Below are positions 1,908 through 43,545 of a stretch of 47,623 nt of DNA, one piece after another. The notes under the pieces were generated by a model. The model did no database searches, had not been told where the DNA came from, and saw only the letters and a program-made list of their open reading frames with translations. The stretch is from a phage: the sequence record PZ445468.1; one strand, written 5' to 3'. The position numbers were made by a program, and so were the translations under genes. The first letter of the stretch is position 1. The number at the start of each line of letters is the position of its first letter.

Positions 1908-1939
1908 TTGACCAATCTACACCGAGCGCATAGTATAAT
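1908..1939 (+). promoter_or_regulatory. sigma70-like promoter TTGACC-17-TAGTAT/TATAAT (rightward)
   Basis: hexamers with 17-bp spacer upstream of 1968 gene; two AATCTAC motif copies inside. Confidence 0.5.
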
Positions 1940-1967
1940 CTACATCAGGTTTATCGGAGATATCACT

Positions 1968-7533: not shown

Positions 7534-7561
7534 AATCTACGTCAACATCATTGTGATAGAA
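7534..7561 (+). promoter_or_regulatory. extended -10 promoter TGTGATAGAAT preceded by AATCTACGTCAAC
   Basis: TGnTAnAAT element 28 nt upstream of endolysin ATG; inverted motif copy at 7506-7516. Confidence 0.45.
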
Positions 7562-10402: not shown

Positions 10403-10447
10403 TTGACCAATCTACATCATTTAGTCAATACTTATTGACGTAGATTG
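10403..10447. promoter_or_regulatory. divergent promoter region with convergent motif pair
   Basis: TTGACCAATCTACATCA ... TTGACGTAGATTG between divergent operons. Confidence 0.4.
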
Positions 10448-16827: not shown

Positions 16828-16853
16828 AAAACCCGCATTATGCGGGTTTTTTA
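16828..16853. terminator. bidirectional rho-independent terminator
   Basis: AAACCCGCATTATGCGGGTTTTTT between convergent genes. Confidence 0.7.
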
Positions 16854-16856
16854 TTG

Positions 16857-17393
16857 CTACAGACGCATCGGCATAACAACAATCTTCGCAGTCTCGCCAG
16901 ATGGCGCACTAAGGCAGCAAACTGCGGCATTTGTATTTCCATTCAACTCAAACTTAACGCCACAGAATTTAGGATTAAACAACTTAGCCACTTTCTCGAT
17001 ATCAACAAGGTAGCCAGCATTAAAGCCAATTTCCTCTGCTGCTTTAGTTTCTTTTGGTATCACGCGGTCAATATCAGGGAATCGACCATCAATCTCTTCG
17101 CAGATACCAGCTCCAACCATCACGCCAGCTTCATCATGATACGTTGAAATTTTCGACTTGGTATCAATGATGGCGTACTCATAACGTTTTGTTGGAGATT
17201 TGCCAATCTTGATAATCACCTTTTCTGTCAGCTTATTGTCATGGCTGCCGCCAATAAATGCGCGATGACCGTCAGTTGATGCGACGCGACCATCAGGCAT
17301 GAAGCAGATGCCATTCAGGTAGTAACGCACATCGTTTTTCGCCTGAAATATCAACGCGCCTTCAAGTAATAATTTGCTGATTTTTAGTTTCAT
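16857..17393 (-). CDS. truncated DNA polymerase III beta-clamp (DnaN) homologue
   Basis: DVRYYLNG, TDGHR, DGRFPD, EIGFN and C-terminal VVMPMRL match E. coli DnaN domain II and end of domain III. Confidence 0.6.
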   Translation of the reverse strand: MKLKISKLLLEGALIFQAKNDVRYYLNGICFMPDGRVASTDGHRAFIGGSHDNKLTEKVIIKIGKSPTKRYEYAIIDTKSKISTYHDEAGVMVGAGICEEIDGRFPDIDRVIPKETKAAEEIGFNAGYLVDIEKVAKLFNPKFCGVKFELNGNTNAAVCCLSAPSGETAKIVVMPMRL

Positions 17394-17569
17394 CACTTCA
17401 CCTTAATCATGTGTTGTTTTGCAACCTTCAGGCATTCTTCAAAAATGCCACCCTTCTTTGCGCTCTGATTGCGCCTGTAGTGGGTAATTGCGGCCTCTAT
17501 GGCCGCGTTGTCGATGCCCGGCAGTTTGTCGCGCAGGTTTTTCTCGATGAATTGTTCAGGAGTCATCAT
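17393..17569 (-). CDS. hypothetical protein (58 aa)
   Basis: short ORF read by eye, start/stop overlaps with both neighbours. Confidence 0.3.
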   Translation of the reverse strand: MMTPEQFIEKNLRDKLPGIDNAAIEAAITHYRRNQSAKKGGIFEECLKVAKQHMIKVK

Positions 17570-17832
17570 CAATCACCATCATCGTGAAGGCTGTTGAGTT
17601 TGCCTCCGCAGAAAGGACAAAAATTAAGCAGAACTGGATTTTTATTTCCAGCTTGATAGGTGACTTTTTCACCCAATGATTCTCCTGTGGAAATTAGCAC
17701 CGATTGCACAGAAACTAATCCTTTTGTGTTTTTATTTGCTGCACGCTGAAGGTATTCAGCGAGATGTGCGCAAATATTAGTTGCGTATCTTTTCCCTTCG
17801 CTTGCGCATGGAATTAATTTTTCGGTCATCAC
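17569..17832 (-). CDS. zinc-ribbon protein
   Basis: C-terminal CPFCGG motif. Confidence 0.45.
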   Translation of the reverse strand: MMTEKLIPCASEGKRYATNICAHLAEYLQRAANKNTKGLVSVQSVLISTGESLGEKVTYQAGNKNPVLLNFCPFCGGKLNSLHDDGD

Positions 17833-18638
17833 ATCTTCTCCAGAATAGCCATAACTTCGTGAATATCAGCAACAGGGATCTGGATAAATTCCTCATCCTC
17901 TGCCACCACATGACCAGCAGGAAGAATCACATGGTCGGCTGGCTTCAATAACTCAATCAAACGGTCTACTGGCTTAATCTTTTTCGACTTCAGCACCTTC
18001 GCAGTGACCTTATCCTTACCTTGCGCCTTCGCTTCTTCCACTGCCTCGTCGATAAGTTTAACCGCATCATCACCATGCTCACGCGTTACTGCTACGGCAT
18101 TTGCATAGCTGATTTGCCCGGCGCTGATGCGCGCCTTTACTTCCGCCGTAACGTCACCAAGCGATAGGTGCATTTGCACGTCAGATACTGAGCGACCTAC
18201 CTTTTTTGCTATTTCTTCATTAGTCCAGCCAAAGCCTTTCAGTCGCGTGTAAGCCTTTGCGCGTTCAAACGGGTCGAGCTTCTTGCCCTGACTTGATGAC
18301 ACCATAAAGGCGATTTTATCCGCCTCATCCCCTGTGAAATCCTTACACTCAATACGAACGATTGGTGCTCCGCGCTCAATGGCTCGCAGTGCGCCGAGAT
18401 AGCGATGCTGACCATCAAGAATGCGGATTCCCTTCTCGTCAGGAATAACTGTTAATGCTGGTAATGGTTGGCCTGACTCCCAGCACTGCGCGAAATATTC
18501 CACATGCTGCTCATCTGCTTCGCGGATGTTGTATCCCGGCTCCAGATAGATTTGCTCCACTGGCACGAGATAGGTTTTGTTAACAGCGATGCCGTTTCGC
18601 GTCTCTTTGTCTGAATAGATTTTGCTGAGTGTTTTCAT
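17829..18638 (-). CDS. ParB-like nuclease domain protein (DGQHR motif)
   Basis: ILDGQHRYLGALRA motif typical of ParB/DndB-like N-terminal domain. Confidence 0.55.
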   Translation of the reverse strand: MKTLSKIYSDKETRNGIAVNKTYLVPVEQIYLEPGYNIREADEQHVEYFAQCWESGQPLPALTVIPDEKGIRILDGQHRYLGALRAIERGAPIVRIECKDFTGDEADKIAFMVSSSQGKKLDPFERAKAYTRLKGFGWTNEEIAKKVGRSVSDVQMHLSLGDVTAEVKARISAGQISYANAVAVTREHGDDAVKLIDEAVEEAKAQGKDKVTAKVLKSKKIKPVDRLIELLKPADHVILPAGHVVAEDEEFIQIPVADIHEVMAILEKM

Positions 18639-18649
18639 TGTTTATCCTA

Positions 18650-19126
18650 TTAATCAAAAATCCAATTTTCTGTTTCCGAGTTGTGACCGAGGTTGTAGCT
18701 AATAACAGGTTTTGATGTGTCTATTTTTTTTAATTCATCAACAACAGTTGTGATTACGGCTATATCCTGTTTTAGTCGCATCAAGTGATATTTCTTTCTA
18801 CGCAACAAGCTTTCAAGCGCTAGTTGCTGAGATTGAAACGCATAAGATCGTTCTGCTGACTTAGCAATTTTCTTGATTGCATATCTATTTTTCTTATCTT
18901 TCCACTCCGCAAGCCAGCGGGGAATATCACGTTCATGATTGTATACTTTGAACCAGTGGGCTGGGGCTATCCATACATAGTACGCTGTCTGGTGAAAAGC
19001 AATGAACTGCTGAGAAATTATTTTGATACCGTCACTTTCGACTGTTTCAAAATACTTCCAGTAAACAGGCATGCCGTTGAACTCTGTTTTAGCATCTGGA
19101 AATGGAACTGACCATGATTCACTCAT
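18650..19126 (-). CDS. hypothetical protein (158 aa)
   Basis: first gene of antisense operon. Confidence 0.5.
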   Translation of the reverse strand: MSESWSVPFPDAKTEFNGMPVYWKYFETVESDGIKIISQQFIAFHQTAYYVWIAPAHWFKVYNHERDIPRWLAEWKDKKNRYAIKKIAKSAERSYAFQSQQLALESLLRRKKYHLMRLKQDIAVITTVVDELKKIDTSKPVISYNLGHNSETENWIFD

Positions 19127-19168
19127 TTTTCATCACCTCTAACATTTATTGTTGTTTCTACGCCACCA

Positions 19169-19214
19169 ACTATAAACGCCGCACTAATCTACGTCAACAG
19201 GAATATGCTAAAAT
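19169..19214. promoter_or_regulatory. divergent promoters
   Basis: leftward TTGACG-17-TATAGT; rightward extended -10 TGCTAAAAT; contains AATCTACGTCAAC. Confidence 0.5.
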
Positions 19215-19244
19215 CATGCTAATCAAACAACAGGGGATTTAAAC

Positions 19245-19364
19245 ATGGGTTCAACAAACGGTCCATCTCGTTCACGCGCTACTGGCAACACAAAAACTGG
19301 CGGCAAAACTGGCGCAGTGAAGCCAAACGGTTCTACCCGCTCACCGTCGCGCGGTAAAAAATAA
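19245..19364 (+). CDS. highly basic 39-aa protein
   Basis: short ORF read by eye; stop overlaps next ATG. Confidence 0.3.
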   Translation: MGSTNGPSRSRATGNTKTGGKTGAVKPNGSTRSPSRGKK

Positions 19365-21761: not shown

Positions 21762-21836
21762 GGCACACCATGCAGGACTCGAACCTGCAACCAATAGCTT
21801 AGAAGGCTACTGCTCTGTCCGTTGAGCTAATGGTGT
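21761..21836 (-). tRNA. tRNA-Arg (anticodon TCT)
   Basis: 76-nt cloverleaf folded by hand: 7-bp acceptor stem ACACCAT/ATGGTGT, GTTCGAGTC T-loop, anticodon loop CTTCTAA, CCA end. Confidence 0.8.
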
Positions 21837-21842
21837 TTTATT

Positions 21843-21930
21843 TGGCGGATAGTACAGGATTCGAACCTGTGAACCGTTTCCGGTTTATCGGTTAGCAACC
21901 GACTGCTTTCGGCCTCTCAGCCAACTATCC
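21843..21930 (-). tRNA. tRNA-Ser (anticodon GCT), type II
   Basis: 88 nt: acceptor GGATAGT/ACTATCC, long variable arm, T-arm ACAGG-TTCGAAT-CCTGT, anticodon loop TTGCTAA, CCA end. Confidence 0.75.
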
Positions 21931-24848: not shown

Positions 24849-24897
24849 AATCTACATCACCGCCTGGCAGGTGTCAACACCACTGAGATGATATAAT
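24849..24897. promoter_or_regulatory. divergent promoters
   Basis: leftward TTGACA-17-TAGATT; rightward extended -10 TGATATAAT before tail chaperone. Confidence 0.55.
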
Positions 24898-34162: not shown

Positions 34163-34666
34163 TCAAAACGGAATGTCGTCGTCGAAGTCCATCGGAGGCT
34201 CATTACCTCCTTGTTGGCTTTGTTGTTTTGGTTGCTGCTGCTGTTGCGGATTTGTTCCCCATCCACCTTGAGGTTGTTGTCCTGATTGCTGGCGTGGTTG
34301 CTGACCAGAATCATCGCGTTTACCACCAAGCATCTGCATAACGCCGCCCATCTGTGGAATGACAATCTCAGTTGTGTATCGGTCCACGCCGTTACTGTCA
34401 GTCCATTTTCGAGTGCGCAGCTGGCCTTCTATGTAAACTTGCGATCCTTTGCGAAGATATTCTGCTGCAACTTCCGCAAGTTTCCCGAATATGACAACAC
34501 GATGCCATTCAGTTTGCTCTTTCTTTTCTCCTGTTTGTTTGTCTTTCCACTGCTCAGATGTTGCAACGGAAAGGTTGGCAATTGCAGAGCCTGATGCTGA
34601 ATATTTAACTTCAGGGTCATTACCGAGAGTGCCGACAATAATTACTTTGTTTACGCCTCGTGCCAT
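34163..34666 (-). CDS. ssb: single-stranded DNA-binding protein
   Basis: OB-fold N-terminus, Gln/Gly-rich linker, acidic C-terminal tail DFDDDIPF. Confidence 0.9.
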
Positions 34667-34669
34667 TTA

Positions 34670-35716
34670 TTAAAATCCTTCAATTGGGGTTGGTTTATGT
34701 TCGGTTTTTTCTTCCTGTGGTTCTGGCTGTTGGGGTTGCGGTTTAGCCAGTTTTGCAGGGTTGAAGTTATCTTGCGGTGTGATTACCACAGGAGATAATT
34801 GCTCATCATTGATGAAAGACTCAATGCGATCATATTCAGTAGCAGAAGCAGCGAGAGAAGGCCAGATTGCACGAATCTTATCTTTCAGGTTATCAGGTAT
34901 TGATTTTGCCTCTTCCTTCAGGCCTTCCATGCCTTTTGCGGCAGAGAGCTGAAGTCGTGAGCGCCATGACTCAAACTCTTCGTCAACTTTAACTCCAGAG
35001 TCCACCCATTTGATGAGTCCGCGACCATGTGCCTCGCCAATGTATCCATGTCGAACGCTTTCACGACCAGACTCAAAGAAGATTGGGCGTAGTTCTTCTG
35101 GTAATTTGGTGAACTCCTGAATTTTTCCTCCATCGTGCATCATCATGCTCACAGTCATTTCGAACATGAAGTCTTTCTCGCACACTGGCTGTAACCCAAG
35201 TGATACAGGCTCCTTCGGGTTTGCGAAATCAGTTTTCTGGCGAGCACGAAGACATACAATGATATGCATATTGCTTTGCAGCATGGCATTCATAAACTTC
35301 TTGTGTTCAGCTTTGGCGCGCTTCCAGTCAGCCATCTTTTTGCCGTTAAGCAACGGCTTTTCAGCAATCTCCGTGCAACTCCCTTCCCCTTCCCATTCGT
35401 GCGAGCCTGAATCAATAACAAGAACCTTAACGCCAGCAGCCTGAAACTCTTCAATGGCCTGACGGTAACGAGCAGGACTGAATGGAGCATACATATCAGC
35501 ATGCAGGAATTTACCATCAAGGATGTTTGAGTACAGGCGACCGCGACCGTTTTCAGTATCAAGGAATCCGATTTCTTCTGGTGAGTCAACCATCCCGCGA
35601 GCAAGCTTAAGTGCGCTATATGTTTTCCCGCTACCAGACTGGCCTGAAATACCGATTACCACACGAGAACCGGAACGCTCTGCTGGTTTTATATTGAGAA
35701 TACCCATTTGCATCAC
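34670..35716 (-). CDS. P-loop ATPase (RecA-like recombination ATPase)
   Basis: Walker A GQSGSGKT. Confidence 0.55.
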   Translation of the reverse strand: MMQMGILNIKPAERSGSRVVIGISGQSGSGKTYSALKLARGMVDSPEEIGFLDTENGRGRLYSNILDGKFLHADMYAPFSPARYRQAIEEFQAAGVKVLVIDSGSHEWEGEGSCTEIAEKPLLNGKKMADWKRAKAEHKKFMNAMLQSNMHIIVCLRARQKTDFANPKEPVSLGLQPVCEKDFMFEMTVSMMMHDGGKIQEFTKLPEELRPIFFESGRESVRHGYIGEAHGRGLIKWVDSGVKVDEEFESWRSRLQLSAAKGMEGLKEEAKSIPDNLKDKIRAIWPSLAASATEYDRIESFINDEQLSPVVITPQDNFNPAKLAKPQPQQPEPQEEKTEHKPTPIEGF

Positions 35717-35724
35717 CTCACTAA

Positions 35725-36675
35725 TTATAAATTAAATTGCTTCTTGAACCATTCAGGCGTTTCCATTTCTATGACAGGATTACCTATTGAATAACCCGGC
35801 CACGAATTGGCTTTTTTACACGCCTTGTAAATTTCCATAGCTCCATGCAACTGAATGCGACCGATGCGCAACTGCTCTTCCGTTAATCTAATTAACGCAG
35901 GAATAAACGGTGCTTTCTTTTCCTGAACTAAAAGGTTTACCGAACGAGGCGCATGACCGTATGCCGCAACAAACATATCGTGTTGCATAGCCATTTTCAT
36001 GAAGTAGCCAAGTCGCGCAGCATGTCGGAAAAACTCTTCAGGCTTGGCGCTAACTGCTGTTTTGTAGTCAATGATGTCTCCTCCTTTTGTCAGGCAGTCA
36101 AAGCGAACTTTTGCTTTTTCTCCATTAAGCTCACCGAGAATTGACACTTCAGCATAAGCACCAGCAAGAAGACTGCTGTAATAGCTATTTGCGTGGATTA
36201 CAGCACGCATTTGCTGAATGGATTCATAATCACCACCTTCCAGCATTTGCCTTCCTGCAGCAGATTTTTCAGCCTCTTCACGGATAACATCGTAAATTTT
36301 AACTGGTTCGCCAGTCGCCTGAATGATTTTAATCACCTCAGCCTTCGACTTTCCAGAAAGCCCTTTAATTCCTCGCTCTTTCGCCCATGAGTTCATGTCG
36401 CTCACGGTAACAAGCAGGTCATCACCAAAATCTTCTTTGGTTGGCATGCGAGCATATTCAGCATCAAAACGCTCTGGTTCAAGCAGAGCTGTATGACTTC
36501 CTGTACCGAAGATAAGTGCTTTTGACTGCTCATCTTCTTCGTCTTTGTAGCGCCATGCCGCTGGACAGCGGTCATAAATGTTCCACAAACCAGAGCCATT
36601 AATGTGCTCTGTGTCGGCGTGGTAATCCTCATTACTGAGTTCATTGTTGAAATAGACTTTCATTGTTAACCTCAC
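35725..36675 (-). CDS. PD-(D/E)XK family exonuclease
   Basis: position next to ATPase and SSB; nuclease-like motifs. Confidence 0.5.
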   Translation of the reverse strand: MRLTMKVYFNNELSNEDYHADTEHINGSGLWNIYDRCPAAWRYKDEEDEQSKALIFGTGSHTALLEPERFDAEYARMPTKEDFGDDLLVTVSDMNSWAKERGIKGLSGKSKAEVIKIIQATGEPVKIYDVIREEAEKSAAGRQMLEGGDYESIQQMRAVIHANSYYSSLLAGAYAEVSILGELNGEKAKVRFDCLTKGGDIIDYKTAVSAKPEEFFRHAARLGYFMKMAMQHDMFVAAYGHAPRSVNLLVQEKKAPFIPALIRLTEEQLRIGRIQLHGAMEIYKACKKANSWPGYSIGNPVIEMETPEWFKKQFNL

Positions 36676-36700
36676 TCATCATCACGTAAATGAATCTACA

Positions 36701-37135
36701 TCAATCCACATCAAAAGGCAAGCCAAAATAGAAAAGTGTGGCTTTTTTTAGTTCATCAAGTCCATAAGCGATGGCGGCATAATGACCAAGCCTACACATC
36801 TCTGTTAGCACATCCGATTGCTCCTTGCTCACTCTGCTTTTACTTTTATCGCGGCGCTTTGACTCAATCATTCCGCAACTGTGATTTACACCCGGAGTCA
36901 TTATTACGTTGTCGCCTATTCCAGTCTTAACTCCCATCTTCTGGCGCTTCAGCACAAACTGCACTCTGCTTGATGTGCCAGTTTCGTTTGGTACATGAAA
37001 CCACAGAACATCAGGGAATCGGTGTTGCATCCATGTGCCGTAACCCATCTGGTCAGTCTCCTCTTTAGGACACTCACCACGATAACCGCTATCAAATACC
37101 CATATACCGCTATCAAGCTGCTTCACTTTGCTCAC
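36701..37135 (-). CDS. VRR-NUC domain nuclease
   Basis: 144-aa ORF with D ... E-x-K pattern (GIGDNVI ... GMIESKR). Confidence 0.45.
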   Translation of the reverse strand: MSKVKQLDSGIWVFDSGYRGECPKEETDQMGYGTWMQHRFPDVLWFHVPNETGTSSRVQFVLKRQKMGVKTGIGDNVIMTPGVNHSCGMIESKRRDKSKSRVSKEQSDVLTEMCRLGHYAAIAYGLDELKKATLFYFGLPFDVD

Positions 37136-39050
37136 CTGTAAAATCTTTTCTGTGGATTATGTCTCGGCCTTTATCATTAATACGATGCGTGATGCGTTTT
37201 GGCGATTTAATCAATCCAGCATACATCATGAATTGTTTTGCGTTCTGGCATTTCAGTATTTTCCCAGCCATTGACTTATCATCAAGGTGAGGAAAGATAG
37301 CCTTTGCCTTAAACATGTTTTTCATGTGAGTTGCGCCGCTATAAGGGTAGAAAACCTCGCTAGCCCATCCTTCTTTTCCGTCACAACGATTAATCCAGTA
37401 GCGATATAAAACCCCCTCTCCATCCTTCGTTAACTGAACCTTGAAATCCATAACGTCAGCCCATTCATTATCCGTATACGCACGCTCATTCAGTGCCGCA
37501 TTAGGGTCGCGCAGAACATGATCGCAATGTCGGCAATAACGCGCAGTAGGGTCATTTTTAGTCCCGCAACCATCATCAAAAATCCGTATTCCATGCTTGT
37601 CGAAACCGCAACGAATGTAGCTGAAAAATTCTTCGCATCGACCATCTGGCGATAGTACATCTTTGCCAATGCAGCGGCGCGCATATGGGCTGTTCATTGT
37701 TCCGCATTTCGGGCACGGAACCTGTTCACCACTGCGCCTTGAACGCTGAGCCTCAGCTTCTTCCAGAATCGGGTCTTCATACAGCTGACCAAGCTCAAAC
37801 ATCGTGCCTGAGAAATCAAGAACCAGATGGTCTTCTTTATGATACCCAGCATCAATTTGCTCCTTCTTCAGCAGGCGCATACCGCGACCAAGCAACTGGA
37901 CAAGGAGAGTTAGCGACATTATTTTCCTGAGGATTACGCTTACATCCCATAGCGGAATGTTTACTCCGGTCGTCAGCGCGGCTATCTGGAATGTGTATTT
38001 TATTTTGCCAGTGTACGCATCCTTTAGAGCCTTACGTCTGGCTTTTTGCCCCATATCTTCGGTGACAATAGCGTAGCTACCTTCTGGCAGATATTTAGCA
38101 GCTTCTAAACAATGCTTCTTGCCTGCGCAGGTAATTAACACTCCATTTCTATCTTTTGTAAGCTCCATCACTTTGAGCATGATTTTCTGTGTGAGAGTAC
38201 CTTGCTCAAGGATTTCTTCCTGCATCTGCTTAAGTTGTTCGGCAGTGAAGTCCTGCGTTCCGTCGATATCAGATCCACGGAATGCTGAAAGGTCGTAATG
38301 CAAATCATCAACATCATGAAGGCCAAAGATTGTTGGAACAACAAATCCGCGATCTACCATGTACTTTGTGTCAATGTTTATTATTTCATTCTTCCAGTAC
38401 GCACCTTTCATTGATTCAGTGCCACGGAATGGGCTTCCGGTGAATCCAATTGTTATCATTTCATGACCATGTTTTGCCTTGCATCTCCTGTTAAGTTCCG
38501 TAAGTATTACACCATATTGTGTTGTTGGATTCTCACTAATAATGTCCTGCCACGGAACTTGGTGCCCTTCATCGCACAGGCAAAATCTGGGGGCAAAATC
38601 ACTCAATCCACCTTTCTTAACGTCACCACTTGATTCATCTTTTTTATCAAAAAGTGCGTTAACGATTGTTCCTTCAGTTCCGCATATAATAGGGTATGCT
38701 GTACTTTTCCTGCCAAGAGATGCGCTATAAAGAGAATTTTTTACACCGCACTCCCACATCATTTCAGCATTCTGCTCTGCTATTTCCCCCTGCCTTGAAA
38801 TAACAAGGCCATCCCACCCCATATCCTGAAATCTACTGCAAAGCATTGAAATTATCACGGTCTTTCCTGATGAAACCGACGCTGTAACATAGCTTGGTTC
38901 AGGTTTCTTGCCAAAATTACGAATAACCTCAGCGCACTTTGCGTAAACAAGCCATTGGTAATCATATGGCTCTATGGAGCCTAATTTTATTGATTGCTTT
39001 AACTTCTCAATATTAATCTCTGAAATCATTTTGTCTATTTTGTTCATCAC
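37113..39050 (-). CDS. DExH-box superfamily II helicase
   Basis: Walker A SSGKT, DEGH motif II, C-terminal Cys4 zinc-finger pairs. Confidence 0.75.
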   Translation of the reverse strand: MMNKIDKMISEINIEKLKQSIKLGSIEPYDYQWLVYAKCAEVIRNFGKKPEPSYVTASVSSGKTVIISMLCSRFQDMGWDGLVISRQGEIAEQNAEMMWECGVKNSLYSASLGRKSTAYPIICGTEGTIVNALFDKKDESSGDVKKGGLSDFAPRFCLCDEGHQVPWQDIISENPTTQYGVILTELNRRCKAKHGHEMITIGFTGSPFRGTESMKGAYWKNEIINIDTKYMVDRGFVVPTIFGLHDVDDLHYDLSAFRGSDIDGTQDFTAEQLKQMQEEILEQGTLTQKIMLKVMELTKDRNGVLITCAGKKHCLEAAKYLPEGSYAIVTEDMGQKARRKALKDAYTGKIKYTFQIAALTTGVNIPLWDVSVILRKIMSLTLLVQLLGRGMRLLKKEQIDAGYHKEDHLVLDFSGTMFELGQLYEDPILEEAEAQRSRRSGEQVPCPKCGTMNSPYARRCIGKDVLSPDGRCEEFFSYIRCGFDKHGIRIFDDGCGTKNDPTARYCRHCDHVLRDPNAALNERAYTDNEWADVMDFKVQLTKDGEGVLYRYWINRCDGKEGWASEVFYPYSGATHMKNMFKAKAIFPHLDDKSMAGKILKCQNAKQFMMYAGLIKSPKRITHRINDKGRDIIHRKDFTGEQSEAA

Positions 39051-39622
39051 CTACTCCTGCTAAAATCACCGTGTAATGATTTTCTATATTTCTTTATGGC
39101 GTTACCTGCTTCCTCTGCTGTATTAAAGTAACCAAGATTAAATCTCCTGCCGTTAACCGCTATCCTTGCTCTCCACTTTTTACTTTTTGCATCAAAGCCA
39201 ACCCCTTTAAATCCAGATTGGTTATCAATTCTGATTTTCCTATTCATGCAGTTTTCGCTTGGTTTTGCCTCTCTTAAATTTAAGATGGCGTTATTTGATT
39301 TATCTAAGTCGATATGGTCAATCTCAAATTAAGGCCACTTCCCGTTAACATAAAACCATGCAAGTCTGTGGGCCATAAACCTGTATCCACCTATAACTAT
39401 GCGTACATATCCGGTATTCTCAACATATCCAGCTCTCGGTGAGTTACTGTGATTACCATTTCTCCACGTAAAAATTCCTGTTGATTTTTCATAATTAATT
39501 TTTGATTTAAGAAACTCATGGCTTAGCGATGACTCCTTTTGCTTTCTTCTCTCTAAATTTCTTGACTCTGCACCTGACAGAGCAGCACTTCGCCTTTGCA
39601 GTTCCGATGAACTCATTTCCAC
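39047..39622 (-). pseudogene. HNH-AP2 homing endonuclease interrupted by in-frame TAA
   Basis: both halves align to intact paralogue at 47116..; TAA at 39329-39331 sits where paralogue has E/K. Confidence 0.6.
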
Positions 39623-39665
39623 AAACCTCGCACTTCTTTACGGTGATCGCCATTTCATAACCTCT

Positions 39666-39729
39666 ATTGTAACGATTAATTGTTTCATTTCAAGTAACGA
39701 TTGATTGTTTCATGCGAGTAAATTACAAT
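39666..39729. promoter_or_regulatory. divergent promoters with tandem 18-bp repeats
   Basis: leftward TTGAAA-16-TACAAT; rightward TTGATT-17-TACAAT; AACGATT(A/G)ATTGTTTCAT twice. Confidence 0.45.
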
Positions 39730-39760
39730 GATTCTACATCATCGTCAACAGGAAGATTTT

Positions 39761-40714
39761 ATGAGATACGACTGGAAAGACATTGAGCCAAAAATGCTCG
39801 GAAATTGGCAGGCCGCCATCATGTCTATCGTCAATGTGGATAGCAGAGTTTTCAATGGCAAGCACCAGCCATGCCCGTCATGCTCAGGAAAAGACAGATA
39901 TCGCTTTGATGATAACTTCGAAACAAAAGGCGATGGCGGCGCAATATGCAATCAGTGCGGGTCCGGCAGCGGCATGAACTGGCTGATGAAACTTTCAGGC
40001 ATGAACTTCCCTGAAGCACTGGAGGCGCTTGGTGGATTCCTGAACATGCACCCACGCGAAAAGCTGGAGGCAATCAGGAAGGAACTACCGAAGATAAATT
40101 ACAACGATGACTTCATCACCGAGCAGGAAGTAGCCGCAATCATGTCTAAAACGACGCGTGTCGCGATGAGTGAGTGGACTTTGATAAATGGTATTGGTTG
40201 CGACGTTAGCGTCGTCAGAGGGAAATCTGGGGAGCTTATTGCGGTTGAGATGGTGCGCGCTGACACAATGAGTCCGTGCAACGTGGCATTCATTGGCATG
40301 GATGGTGATGCATTCAGAACATTCTACAAAGCAGGATATAACAAAGACTCAGCCATAAACGGCAAACTCACACGAGGCGCGATAAGCCCAATCGGAGAAG
40401 ATAACGGAAAGTTCATTTATCTGGTGTCTGATTATGCCGACGCGTGGAAATGCCATTACTTCACTGGCGCGCATGTCTGGTGCTGCTGGTCGCCGGAAAA
40501 TATGTGGGAAGTGGTGCGCTCGGTTAGCGGTGAGACGAAAGCAAGGTTACGCTGCATAGTTAATTATAAATTTGACGAGCTTTGCGCTGCGGAAAATGCA
40601 GGACTTCCGGTGATGCTGCCTGATGATTCCGACACAATCAGGATGGCGAAGCGAATCAGAAGAAAGATTTATGACGCTGGCGAGTTGATAGAGAAGATCT
40701 CAGTTTGCAGATAA
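39761..40714 (+). CDS. putative DNA primase (zinc-ribbon)
   Basis: N-terminal CPSC ... CNQC zinc-binding motif; AGGAAG RBS. Confidence 0.5.
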   Translation: MRYDWKDIEPKMLGNWQAAIMSIVNVDSRVFNGKHQPCPSCSGKDRYRFDDNFETKGDGGAICNQCGSGSGMNWLMKLSGMNFPEALEALGGFLNMHPREKLEAIRKELPKINYNDDFITEQEVAAIMSKTTRVAMSEWTLINGIGCDVSVVRGKSGELIAVEMVRADTMSPCNVAFIGMDGDAFRTFYKAGYNKDSAINGKLTRGAISPIGEDNGKFIYLVSDYADAWKCHYFTGAHVWCCWSPENMWEVVRSVSGETKARLRCIVNYKFDELCAAENAGLPVMLPDDSDTIRMAKRIRRKIYDAGELIEKISVCR

Positions 40715-40717
40715 AGG

Positions 40718-40742
40718 AAACCATCCAGTTGGAGGGTTTTTG
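40718..40742 (+). terminator. rho-independent terminator
   Basis: AAACCATCCAGTTGGAGGGTTTTTG. Confidence 0.5.
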
Positions 40743-40813
40743 TTATTCATTGAACTCTGGCGCTTCAGTCCAGAAGTGCTCAGGTAAAATTTTAAGTTCG
40801 TGTGTTTTGCTCA

Positions 40814-42406
40814 TCACAACCCCCTCATAAATCTCATGCGCTTAACGGCAGCGGAAAGATAATTTCTAACCGTTGAGTTCATCCGCAGGCCATCCCATGA
40901 ACCATCACTACACATCTTAATTGCTCTTGGATTATCCCTGTCCAGCATTAGTGGTGAATGTTTGTTCTCCTCAATGGCAAGAAGAACCTCATAAACAAAC
41001 TTATCAGGTGTTAGTGTGATGTTATTAGAGTCAGCAGAATTGATTATCTTTTCAACTCTGTCACGGCACAGCTTGTTCTTTATAACAGACAAATAAGGCG
41101 TTTTAATGAATGCCTGTGATTCACAAATTCGCTTTATTTTTTCAACAATATTCGACCACTCAGTATTCTCAAGTCCATCAAATGCCTGTTCACCCTCAAG
41201 GAATCTTTTCAGCCCTGACAGGTGTTCAAGAACCGTGATATAACCCCACTCGATATGCTCCATCGTCACTGATGGTGTCATTCCCTGCCGACTTGACAGA
41301 TCGGTATACGCCGCCAGAGTTGCAAGATCGACAATCATTAGACCCATACGAGGGATAACATCACCAACAACACCATCGCAATCACCAAGCTCACTTTCCA
41401 GTTTCATAGACAGAGATCGGTGCAGTTTTTTAGCATTATCATCAGCCCATACAACGTGAGTTTTCGCGGTAAGAACCCTACCTTTCCACTCATTGATTAT
41501 TTTTCTTGAAAGCGTACCACTCACTTCCACATCCTTCATCGCTGGCATTTCCTCACCAGCAAGATGTCCAAGCTGGAACAGCACGCGCCCCATACCGCCA
41601 TCTTTCTGCCATGAACGCGCAGCATCTATTCCCTGCTCTGGTGTGACAGTAATCAGCGGAACAAATTTTGCGTTTTCAATTCCACCTTCTTTTGTTGCAA
41701 TTTCGTACTCATTCATTGCCGACTTTAGTGCTCTCCCAACGCTGTGGTCCATCATCGCAAGACGCTTATAATCTATGACTCCTTTCCCGTCATCTCCACC
41801 AGTAAGTGGCACTATCCATCCCTCTGCGCTTGCTGCCGCCATGATGCGTTTTGGGTTTTGTTCCCACGTAAGGTTTTCAAGCAACTCCTTTATTATTGGT
41901 CTATTAGGAACCCACACGCCGCCATCAGTTAGGGCTCTATACCACGCCATAGTGCCGCCAAGATATGCATTGCGCGGGTTGTTCCAGTCTTCAAGATGTT
42001 GCTTGTCATCGTTCACAACGTAGAGCAAAGACCCACCTCCGGCAATCAGGTCTAACTGCATCTGTTTCGTCGATGTTGATTTGGATGCGCAAACTCTGGA
42101 CCCTATTCCCAGCGCATTGGCATACGCCCTGACGAAACTCACCGGTGCACCCTTACCTGCACCAGAGCGAGCCACGAGAAATATTCCAGTATTGCAGATA
42201 CTACCTGTTGGACCAATCAAGTATCGTCCAGCCATCGCCTGAGCAAGACCCAACGCGCCAGTTAAACGATATCTTCCCCCTCCCTCACGGCGCTCAAACC
42301 CCCTTGCGATCTCATCCATAAACTCACCAAGTGCCCCGGGAGCATCCCGCTTTATGCCCATAGCCAGAGACTCAAAATCAATCGAACTCATCAATACACC
42401 CTCCAT
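40814..42406 (-). CDS. hypothetical protein (530 aa), possible replication protein
   Basis: large ORF next to iteron region; Gly-rich SGAGKG loop not a canonical Walker A. Confidence 0.4.
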   Translation of the reverse strand: MEGVLMSSIDFESLAMGIKRDAPGALGEFMDEIARGFERREGGGRYRLTGALGLAQAMAGRYLIGPTGSICNTGIFLVARSGAGKGAPVSFVRAYANALGIGSRVCASKSTSTKQMQLDLIAGGGSLLYVVNDDKQHLEDWNNPRNAYLGGTMAWYRALTDGGVWVPNRPIIKELLENLTWEQNPKRIMAAASAEGWIVPLTGGDDGKGVIDYKRLAMMDHSVGRALKSAMNEYEIATKEGGIENAKFVPLITVTPEQGIDAARSWQKDGGMGRVLFQLGHLAGEEMPAMKDVEVSGTLSRKIINEWKGRVLTAKTHVVWADDNAKKLHRSLSMKLESELGDCDGVVGDVIPRMGLMIVDLATLAAYTDLSSRQGMTPSVTMEHIEWGYITVLEHLSGLKRFLEGEQAFDGLENTEWSNIVEKIKRICESQAFIKTPYLSVIKNKLCRDRVEKIINSADSNNITLTPDKFVYEVLLAIEENKHSPLMLDRDNPRAIKMCSDGSWDGLRMNSTVRNYLSAAVKRMRFMRGL

Positions 42407-42937: not shown

Positions 42938-43084
42938 TCCAACAGGAACTATAGATAAAAAATAAAATTAGCGCAACACAAAACAGGTCTAACCAGCAAT
43001 AATAGCTACCACACTTAACAACTGGTCAGACCACCATCTCGTATCTGATATATGTGGATGGTGCACGTCGTTCAATTTGTGCTC

Positions 43085-43443
43085 GATTTTTACCTAATTT
43101 ACCGTATATTTATTAGTCAGTTTTTTGCATAACCAATTGATTTATATGATTTTACCTGTTTTACCGGAAATCTAATGAGTATTTTCATCATTGAGAGTAG
43201 TAGTATATTAATTGGTCTAATTTTTAAAGAACTCTAATAAAATCAATATATTAATATAAGAAAGTAACTTACTTACTTATATAGGATTTACCGGGTAAAA
43301 CCGGTAACTCCTCCGCAGTCCGCGTCATTACTGGATTGATTTTTACCACCTGTAGGTAAATACAGTAGTTTTTAAGTCAGGATTGTTTTGTAAGATGTTG
43401 ATTACCGGTACTTTATTTGAAAAACCGGGATTTACCGGGTTTT
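43085..43443. repeat. iteron array (TTTACC / ACCGG core), putative origin
   Basis: at least 10 direct and inverted copies of GATTT(T)ACC(G/T), including palindromes TTACCGG-N6-CCGGTAA and TACCGGTA. Confidence 0.55.
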
Positions 43444-43516
43444 TGTGGTGTGATTAATAATCGCGCAATTAGCCATGTTTCACCAGAACTCACTGATGCG
43501 ACACCTGAAAATCGCA

Positions 43517-43545
43517 TTGACGTAGAATTACAACTGATGTAGATT
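43517..43545 (+). promoter_or_regulatory. sigma70-like early promoter TTGACG-17-TAGATT
   Basis: hexamers 30 nt upstream of first early ORF; second motif copy overlaps. Confidence 0.5.

Follow-up and report, generated by a model that had tools for sequence, protein, structure and literature searches.

Why should a phage that builds its head and neck from plus-strand genes carry a block of five minus-strand genes at the junction between the two, and what might such a block do? We considered this question for positions 16857-19126 of a 47,623-nt window that is the complete genome, circularly permuted, of Escherichia phage TanjaMuster_Bas81 (PQ850630.1, 47,623 bp; record coordinate = window coordinate + 1048); coordinates are those of the window unless another genome is named. 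This phage, hereafter Bas81, is a member of Bas77-81, the Skatevirus-like cluster of small O-antigen-dependent siphoviruses in the BASEL-collection paper (PMC11990801). The five open reading frames (ORFs) listed by a first-pass annotation of the window are all present and equal the GenBank coding sequences (CDSs) Bas81_0046 to 0050 of this record, and a DNA-level comparison found the region to be common to ~200 phage records. Our analysis suggests that the last gene of the block encodes a half-size version of the bacterial beta clamp, which would provide the docking site of the clamp without its ring-forming parts. We propose, with moderate confidence, that the block has an accessory role in phage DNA replication or repair, in which it recruits, or competes for, the partners of the host clamp.

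The gene in question (16857-17396, minus strand; 178-179 amino acids, aa), which we call the mini beta-clamp or mini-clamp, is named 'RusA-like Holliday junction resolvase' in GenBank. In a phmmer search of PDB, its residues 8-155 aligned with residues 136-289 of the beta clamp, and its residues 121-179 with residues 315-366, the matches including TDGHR, GRFPD..RV.P and IGFN..Y. The C-terminus, VVMPMRL, is identical to that of the enterobacterial beta clamp in the alignment, which has the same residue numbering as E. coli beta and with which R152, Y154, L155, T172, G174, H175, R176, P242, R246, V247, N320, Y323, V360 and M362 through L366 are also shared. An AlphaFold2 model built from 139 diverse sequences reached a pLDDT of 97.3 and a pTM of 0.91 (a shallow alignment of 28 sequences at 72-95% identity gave an unusable model with a pLDDT of 43). 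The top matches of this model in a Foldseek search of PDB were all beta clamps, and many phage models of 180-250 aa in BFVD matched it at TM 0.8-0.9. A RusA identity was also considered and rejected, because no RusA match was found in Pfam or NCBIfam and all sequence and fold matches are sliding clamps; the label traces only to the name of phrog_3007, from which it has been propagated in RefSeq (e.g., NC_054647.1 gp73, NC_054645.1 gp37 and NC_071156.1 gp36).

Which parts of the clamp have been kept? From secondary structure and alignments, the mini-clamp corresponds to beta domain II minus its second helix, joined to the C-terminal half of domain III (beta-alpha-beta-beta-beta). Nothing in it corresponds to domain I, to beta residues ~290-314 or to the larger part of the first half of domain III; the protein has 179 aa against the 366 aa of DnaN, the beta subunit of E. 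coli DNA polymerase III (Pol III), and only two channel-lining helices are left per protomer in the model. The individual domains have the DNA-clamp fold, and the protein as a whole lies outside the three-domain, ~366-aa DnaN family: it scored 35.4 bits against TIGR00663 (cut-off 137.65), over model positions 138-254 only, and 15-16 bits against PF02767 and PF02768 (cut-off 27), and no match to domain 1 of DNA_pol3_beta was found in the Pfam scan. In DnaN, the missing first half of domain III carries the dimer interface, and we infer that the mini-clamp does not form the known head-to-tail DnaN dimer ring. In the family alignment (139 sequences, 133 of which are representatives at 50% identity), at least 75% of the sequences agree at D150, R152, Y154, L155, N156, G157, T172, G174, H175, G239, P242, D243, Y323, M362, P363 and R365 (E. 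coli beta numbering). In clamp-peptide structures, these residues make up the peptide-binding cleft of the clamp. The mini-clamp thus appears to retain the cleft between domains II and III, including the MPMR tail, and is predicted to bind peptides there. The term 'clamp mimic' used in the first-pass annotation suits it well, in that the cleft is conserved family-wide and the parts for the known ring are missing.

The same annotation had called the ORF a DnaN fragment. The likeness to DnaN is confirmed, and the word fragment is not, since the length of the protein is conserved across hundreds of clusters and its gene is under purifying selection (dN/dS 0.08-0.14 against five relatives). There are 869 close homologues of 171-193 aa (one is listed at 269 aa), and most of the long contigs that carry them are ~46-49 kb. 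A profile search of 1.84 billion representatives retrieved 473 proteins at E<1e-10, and more than 120 clusters (50% identity) of 165-219 aa outscored the first full-length DnaN; tblastn found homologues in 307 phage records. Because the length and specific residues are conserved and dN/dS is low, the mini-clamp is a functional member of a distinct family of ~180-aa proteins. We found no description or experimental study of a truncated phage clamp in the open-access literature, to which our search was confined. Interference with, or use of, the sliding-clamp network by phages is well represented by Twort Gp168 (PDB 7evp), Mu MuC and T4 gp45 in late transcription, but these are clamp ligands or complete clamps, whereas the mini-clamp copies the docking site of the clamp. 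A cellular parallel may be worth following as a lead: the Livneh laboratory reportedly described (J Biol Chem, 1996) an internally initiated, UV-inducible short form of E. coli DnaN, beta*, which is said to have no domain I and to start at about beta residue 135, approximately where the mini-clamp alignment begins. This form reportedly keeps the whole of domain III and works as a clamp, whereas the mini-clamp is without half of domain III and belongs to a separate, diverged family.

The other strongly conserved gene of the block (17829-18638, minus strand) encodes a ParB-like protein of 269 aa, and the ParB-like assignment made from the letters alone holds in Pfam, NCBIfam and PDB searches. 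Its helix-turn-helix (HTH) domain is of the ParB type (PF17762 HTH_ParB, 42 bits, cut-off 22.6), and PF08535 KorB was matched just above its cut-off (23.2 against 22.3 bits). Noc (E 4e-9) and TIGR00180 (E 1.5e-8; 34.6 against 58.45 bits) were matched under their family cut-offs, and PF02195 was not found at E<0.1 in the Pfam scan. With phmmer, residues 40-202, which cover the N-terminal and HTH domains, matched Spo0J (1vz0, E 1.5e-11), and residues 25-184 matched ParB (7bnk, E 2.2e-8). The N-terminal domain is therefore homologous to those of solved ParBs, and the protein consists, from its N-terminus onwards, of a divergent domain of the ParB/Srx type, a ParB HTH and a C-terminal region. Orthologues are found in Pseudomonas phage TC7 (E 1e-29) and Serratia phage Eta (E 3e-25). 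The motifs of CTPase ParBs, Box II GERRxR and Box III ENLQR, are not kept: in the alignment, GERRYR and ENLQRE of 1vz0 are replaced by GQHRYL and SSSQGK, and the orthologues have GHRRR (TC7) and GHRRH (Eta) at Box II. Nucleotide use by the protein is uncertain because of this divergence. Its amino-acid identity is 95-99% in 136 phage records, and ~200 records contain it at 60-100%; its dN/dS is 0.010-0.019, against 0.014-0.076 for the major capsid protein in the same five relatives. The ParB-like protein is at least as constrained as the major capsid protein. Several depositors have annotated it as a transcriptional regulator.

Is it part of a partition system? No ParA gene is annotated in the Bas81 record, and the ParA-binding motif (L/F/I)G(K/R)G(L/F/I), as given in PMC12704722, is missing from the N-terminus, MKTLSKIYSDKETRNGIAVNK. 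No conserved palindrome or parS-like site was found in or near the operon, and no palindrome within it; a k-mer comparison of ParB-positive phages (Bas81 and Klebsiella phage 6991) with the ParB-negative Salmonella phage SB28 was too noisy to yield a candidate site. The protein thus stands outside ParABS partition. With no annotated ParA gene and no ParA-binding motif, it is an orphan protein of the ParB/Noc/KorB type with an HTH, a category on mobile elements that was surveyed in PMC12704722. Noc, KorB, BisD and VirB likewise combine the ParB/Srx fold with a ParB HTH, have no ParA partner and are encoded by mobile elements (PMC12704722); the Bas81 protein differs from them in its Box II and Box III and in that its phage has no annotated lysogeny genes. 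The ParB homologues associated with 5mYOX, which are activators of thymine dioxygenases (PMC13229309), are also orphan phage proteins outside chromosome segregation, but they have no DNA-binding domain and adjoin dioxygenase and hypermodification genes, whereas the Bas81 protein has an HTH, and such enzymes are not encoded here. We also considered as a binding site a cluster of TTTACCGG(G)TAAA-type repeats at 43080-43445, and rejected it as a conserved site of the ParB-like protein because only 5 phage records share the region, against ~200 with the protein. SB28 has neither the cluster nor the ParB-like gene, a single case that carries no weight. Situated between divergent operons, this AT-rich region holds some seven repeats of the TTTACC(G/T)G type, together with near-palindromes (e.g., TTTACCGGGTAAA), and could be an origin or have a regulatory role.

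A different identity had been proposed on the strength of the pentapeptide DGQHR, which is present at residues 75-79 and which the first-pass annotation had connected with DndB-type proteins and DNA modification. We rejected membership of the DndB/DGQHR proteins. Against TIGR03187 the protein scored 16.1 bits (cut-off 58.85), with a match confined to residues 61-101, and the motif varies in the orthologues (DGHRR in TC7, EGHRR in Eta), so the DndB reading fails; the best matches are Spo0J, Noc, KorB and the ParB HTH. Proteins of the DndB/DGQHR type share the ParB/Srx superfamily with the Bas81 protein, which differs in having a ParB HTH, and no dnd-type genes are annotated in the operon or the genome. 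The nuclease fold that had also been suggested was not supported: there was no nuclease-type match, all matches being DNA-binding ParB, Spo0J, Noc and KorB proteins, in searches in which nuclease motifs were not examined specifically.

How are these genes expressed? A sigma-70-type promoter on the minus strand (19169-19197) has a -35 box TTGACG (19197-19192), a 17-nt spacer and a -10 box TATAGT (19174-19169), with 10 of 12 consensus positions matched. It lies 43 nt upstream of the promoter-proximal gene (18650-19126, minus strand), which encodes the 158-aa protein identified in the ORF list and by its PHROG match as phrog_1636. An 11-nt spacer with an AGGA box separates this ORF from the ATG of the ParB-like gene, and from there on the genes are joined by three consecutive TGATG stop/start overlaps, which lead through a protein of 86-87 aa with four cysteines (17569-17832, minus strand, in the ORF list; GenBank start at 17829; phrog_4030) and a small protein of 58-59 aa (17393-17572, minus strand; phrog_4439, E 3.8e-22) to the mini-clamp. 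The operon ends in a hairpin (16828-16850) with a 10-bp stem, 5 GC pairs, a 3-nt loop and T-runs on either strand, an intrinsic terminator for both strands that is common to the operon and the convergent plus-strand head genes. With its promoter, overlaps and terminator, the set of five minus-strand genes is one operon. The flanks had been described in the first-pass annotation as convergent terminators and a divergent promoter. Transcription does end convergently, at this single bidirectional hairpin and not at two terminators; and the minus-strand half of the divergent promoter is present, whereas a sigma-70 scan of the 19130-19245 gap found no plus-strand site. On the far side of this gap, the downstream plus-strand block opens with a conserved 39-aa ORF (19245-19364; MGSTNGPSRSRATGNTKTGGKTGAVKPNGSTRSPSRGKK), which is very basic, rich in Gly, Ser and Thr, contains the direct repeat AAAACTGGCG twice and is annotated also in Akira, LPST10 and SB28. 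Further along, between the neck and tail genes, the GenBank annotation places tRNA-Arg and tRNA-Ser (21764-21930, minus strand).

The -35 box of the operon lies within an extended motif, T(T)GAYGTAGATT, the operon copy of which is TTGACGTAGATT (19197-19186). In a scan of the genome, this copy was found with at most one mismatch at 5 sites, against 0.18 expected, and exact GAYGTAGATT at 8 sites, against 0.22 expected by chance. Each exact site is just upstream of a small-gene cassette on one strand or the other: 1937-1946(-), 7534-7545(-), 10409-10418(-), 10435-10446(+), 19186-19197(-), 24849-24858(-), 36693-36704(-) and 43517-43545(+), the site at 10409(-) being paired with that at 10437(+). 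SB28 has 10 sites of the same motif. The operon is one of at least seven similarly driven cassettes that are interleaved with late structural blocks and, because eight motif sites precede similar cassettes, it is not unique in this genome. An antisense insertion into plus-strand genes, which had drawn attention to the locus, is therefore the normal layout here. The motif, which precedes nearly all of the small-gene cassettes, may represent a class of early promoters specific to the phage, or an operator overlapping the -35 box.

The content of the operon varies among relatives in a regular manner. The ParB-like gene, the phrog_4439 gene and the mini-clamp gene are found in the same order and at the same head/neck junction in Akira, C1, NX263, LPST10, seszw and Klebsiella phage 6991, with phrog_4439 directly upstream of the mini-clamp in Akira, LPST10, NX263, seszw and C1; a phrog_4439 homologue is also found beside the mini-clamp in Vibrio phage 1.115.A (E 5.9e-6). 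The first position of the operon is filled in relatives by annotated EaC, by a phrog_14587 'anti-restriction' gene or by small ORFs (e.g., one of 49 aa), and the position after the ParB-like gene by unrelated small ORFs (a MarR-like one in NX263) or by an N6/N4 DNA methyltransferase (phage C1). The 158-aa and 87-aa genes occupy these variable slots, the former an 'early accessory' slot. Homologues of the 158-aa protein formed only 26 clusters, from phages and from prophages of Enterobacterales; in a lambdoid prophage of E. coli, the homologue is located in the early-left region, downstream of a cI-type repressor gene and upstream of cIII, kil, erf and an anti-RecBCD gene. The 87-aa protein had been described as a Zn-ribbon protein; its four cysteines are present, and the Pfam matches that bear on this description have E 0.02-0.075 only. 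In Escherichia phage C1 (4167-5047), the methyltransferase gene between the ParB-like and phrog_4439 genes is split into two ORFs, the C-terminal piece forming an in-frame fusion with phrog_4439. The fusion may be real or may come from a frameshift in the record, and the arrangement echoes the ParB-methyltransferase fusions that are common in phages.

At greater distances, sampled by hand from annotated phage records, the mini-clamp keeps company with genes for DNA metabolism. Serratia phage Eta has a single-stranded DNA-binding protein (SSB), the ParB-like protein, the mini-clamp and a helicase in succession, beside a primase. In Pseudomonas TC7, the ParB-like gene is followed by small genes, the mini-clamp, one small gene and a C5-methyltransferase; in Salmonella phage Lumpael the order is primase, Dam, mini-clamp, one small gene and a second methyltransferase, and in Acinetobacter 4316 it is Pol I, mini-clamp, VRR-NUC, one small gene and helicase. 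The mini-clamp of Vibrio XM1 is near Dam and SSB, and that of Dhillonvirus TheodorHerzl stands alone between structural genes. The mini-clamp is associated with replication and DNA-modification genes, and the ParB-like gene is a recurrent, not an obligate, partner. The first-pass annotation had named conservation in all relatives with structural functions as the observation that would speak against its proposal; what we found is an accessory operon of non-structural genes. Bas81 itself has no annotated DNA polymerase, and none was found in a Pfam scan of eight proteins, seven of them from the replication/recombination region; the same scan identified a helicase-type protein, a primase, an AAA_24 protein and a PDDEXK nuclease, and an SSB is annotated in the record. 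The replication module of Klebsiella phage 6991 (35218-42123, compared with window 34163-42391) is largely different, with a Gam-like protein, a YejH-type helicase and a 772-aa protein. Because phage 6991 nevertheless keeps the cassette at the head/neck junction, the cassette is independent of the type of replication module.

Are the core genes needed for growth? Skatevirus seszw was the subject of a CRISPR genome-reduction study with deposited mutant genomes (PMC9825161), from which we inferred what can be deleted. Many viable mutants, such as clone 300S (36,991 bp), are without gene 16 (the mini-clamp) and gene 17 (phrog_4439), and these keep gene 18 (the ParB-like gene) and gene 19. In another viable clone, 60L (1501-2265), an in-frame deletion of 15 aa (LGDVPAEVKARISAG, residues 160-174) lies just after the HTH of the ParB-like protein, apparently a CRISPR escape in which the reading frame was kept. 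Salmonella phage SB28 is collinear with Bas81 (major capsid protein 97% and helicase 96% identical) and has the same locus and promoter, without a mini-clamp; there, a 44-aa remnant of the C-terminus of the ParB-like protein is followed by phrog_4439. Because viable seszw mutants lack the mini-clamp and SB28 lacks both proteins, neither of these two core genes is required for lytic growth as such.

How, then, might the operon act? In the reading we prefer, it would be an early or middle accessory operon for DNA metabolism. The ParB-like protein, with its N-terminal nucleotide-switch fold and its HTH, might be a DNA-bound organiser or regulator of phage DNA, and the small helical protein of phrog_4439, translationally coupled to the ParB-like gene, belongs to the conserved core. 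The mini-clamp would be a free docking module for the clamp-binding motifs of host proteins, candidate targets being Pol III alpha or delta, Hda, MutS/L and translesion polymerases; proteins bound in this way would be recruited to phage DNA transactions, or withheld by competition with the host clamp. Such a module would raise fitness and be unneeded for plaque formation. More tentatively, and with distinctly less confidence, we speculate that the mini-clamps are a family of free-standing 'clamp pockets' that bind the replicase, clamp loader, mismatch repair proteins, translesion polymerases and Hda away from the ring and so rewire or disarm the host network; proteins of mobile elements with the same motif are possibly among the targets.

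Several points weigh against the role in replication or repair. The function of the cleft is predicted from residue conservation. The ParB-like protein differs from CTPase ParBs in Box II and Box III and no parS-like site was found, so that a ParB-type mechanism of DNA loading is putative. If the phage depends on host Pol III and the host clamp, a strong decoy would harm the phage too. The canonical clamp-binding motif was not above chance in 95 phage proteins, which counts against a phage partner and is neutral for a host target: there were two loose Qxx[LM]F matches, one in a tail protein and the other, QHDMF, in an ExoVIII-like nuclease, and roughly three would be expected by chance from typical amino-acid frequencies. 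The QHDMF of this PDDEXK nuclease (35725-36663, minus strand) is at residues 227-231; it resembles the internal clamp-binding motif of Pol III alpha, QADMF, and the number of such matches in the proteome is at the chance level. Finally, the core genes can occur apart, the mini-clamp standing alone among structural genes in Dhillonvirus and phrog_4439 being kept in the clampless SB28; the three thus do not form an obligate unit.

Might the operon instead be directed against host defences, as the first-pass annotation proposed? The ParB fold and the clamp mimic would then neutralise host immunity, or attack or mark host DNA, with the mini-clamp as a decoy for clamp-dependent factors. We consider this unlikely, and it keeps some weight on account of the anti-restriction-type genes that gather in the variable slots and of the patchy distribution of the cassette, which is dispensable. 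The phrog_14587, EaC and methyltransferase genes of relatives occupy these slots, the 158-aa homologue of the lambdoid prophage lies among kil, the anti-RecBCD gene and lar, the conservation of the cleft is equally compatible with a decoy, and phage ParB folds are often linked to DNA modification (PMC12704722, PMC13229309). For the two core genes themselves, however, the proposal was not borne out: no PADLOC model, in a collection of defence models and not an anti-defence library, was matched above noise (E >= 0.007), the ParB-like protein has no nuclease-type match and is near-invariant (dN/dS ~0.01), unlike arms-race genes, and in other phages the core pair lies inside replication modules. 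It is thus only in the variable slots of relatives that the earlier proposal finds agreement. A further explanation, by analogy, is that the ParB-like protein loads and slides as KorB and BisD do and regulates distant, late structural promoters, with the mini-clamp as a co-factor in the manner of T4 and Mu late transcription. Its KorB and HTH_ParB matches, the 'transcriptional regulator' label, the alternation of early cassettes with late blocks, a motif over the -35 box that could serve as an operator, and precedents for sliding-clamp regulators (PMC11790492, PMC12409273, PMC12867686) would all be in keeping with this. We nonetheless regard such control as quite improbable: SB28 has the motif at its 10 sites and the same genome layout without a ParB-like protein, so neither the motif nor late expression depends on this protein; the residues that CTPase clamps have at Box III are not kept; and no repeated palindromic site that is co-distributed with the ParB-like gene was found.

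The remaining explanations appear still less probable. Serratia phage Eta, in which the ParB-like and mini-clamp genes are adjacent, has no integrase and forms very unstable lysogens, and its authors proposed ParB-assisted, plasmid-like maintenance (PMC3918226). Extended to Bas81, this would make the ParB-like protein a centromere-binding protein and let the mini-clamp recruit the host replisome, resulting in unstable pseudolysogeny; homologues of the mini-clamp on non-mobilizable plasmids that carry phage-type genes are in agreement with it. Such a carrier state is highly unlikely in our judgement, in view of the lack of annotated ParA, repressor and integrase genes in Bas81, an N-terminus without the LG(K/R)GL ParA-binding motif (PMC12704722), the failure to find a parS-like site and the lytic propagation of Skatevirus seszw through 300 serial transfers (PMC9825161). 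Two other proposals concern the mini-clamp itself. It might be a ring-forming processivity clamp of new stoichiometry, e.g., a six-domain ring made of four copies with 1.5 domains each, in which half-domains pair about a two-fold axis. A clamp domain is built from two similar beta-alpha-beta-beta-beta halves, so that a lone half-domain has a natural partner in a second copy, and both the mildly basic character of the protein (pI 8.5) and the position of its gene beside Pol I in Acinetobacter phage 4316 would suit a ring. Against this stand the two channel-lining helices per protomer, a gene that can be deleted and a family conservation that is concentrated on the cleft, not on the putative interfaces or DNA-facing helices; we give a ring as little credence as the carrier state. 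The least probable explanation, to which we attach hardly any weight, is that a host dnaN was captured and is now in decay, this ORF being what is left of it. As a remnant might, the ORF corresponds to no more than a part of DnaN and scores under the cut-offs of that family, but the dN/dS given above, the length kept both among the 869 close homologues and across the divergent clusters, of which there are more than 120, the compact fold at a pLDDT of 97 and the residues conserved family-wide are not those of a decaying gene.

The peptide-binding pocket of the sliding clamp is a hub of bacterial replication and repair and an antibiotic target. If the accessory role in replication or repair is correct, a compact pocket protein of ~180 aa in hundreds of phages would be a new kind of host-manipulation factor, and the mini-clamp could serve as a decoy or as bait in pull-downs of clamp-binding proteins. 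If the more tentative proposal of a free-standing clamp-pocket family is also true, the family would take over the host in a new way and offer a natural model for inhibitors of clamp interactions. In either case, the 'RusA-like Holliday junction resolvase' label should be corrected in RefSeq and GenBank. The ParB-like protein, which is as constrained as the capsid protein or more so and yet is missing in a collinear relative, lends itself well to the study of orphan ParB folds in phages without lysogeny genes. Small siphoviruses without an annotated polymerase must engage the host replisome, and the mini-clamp provides a concrete way to ask how they do so.

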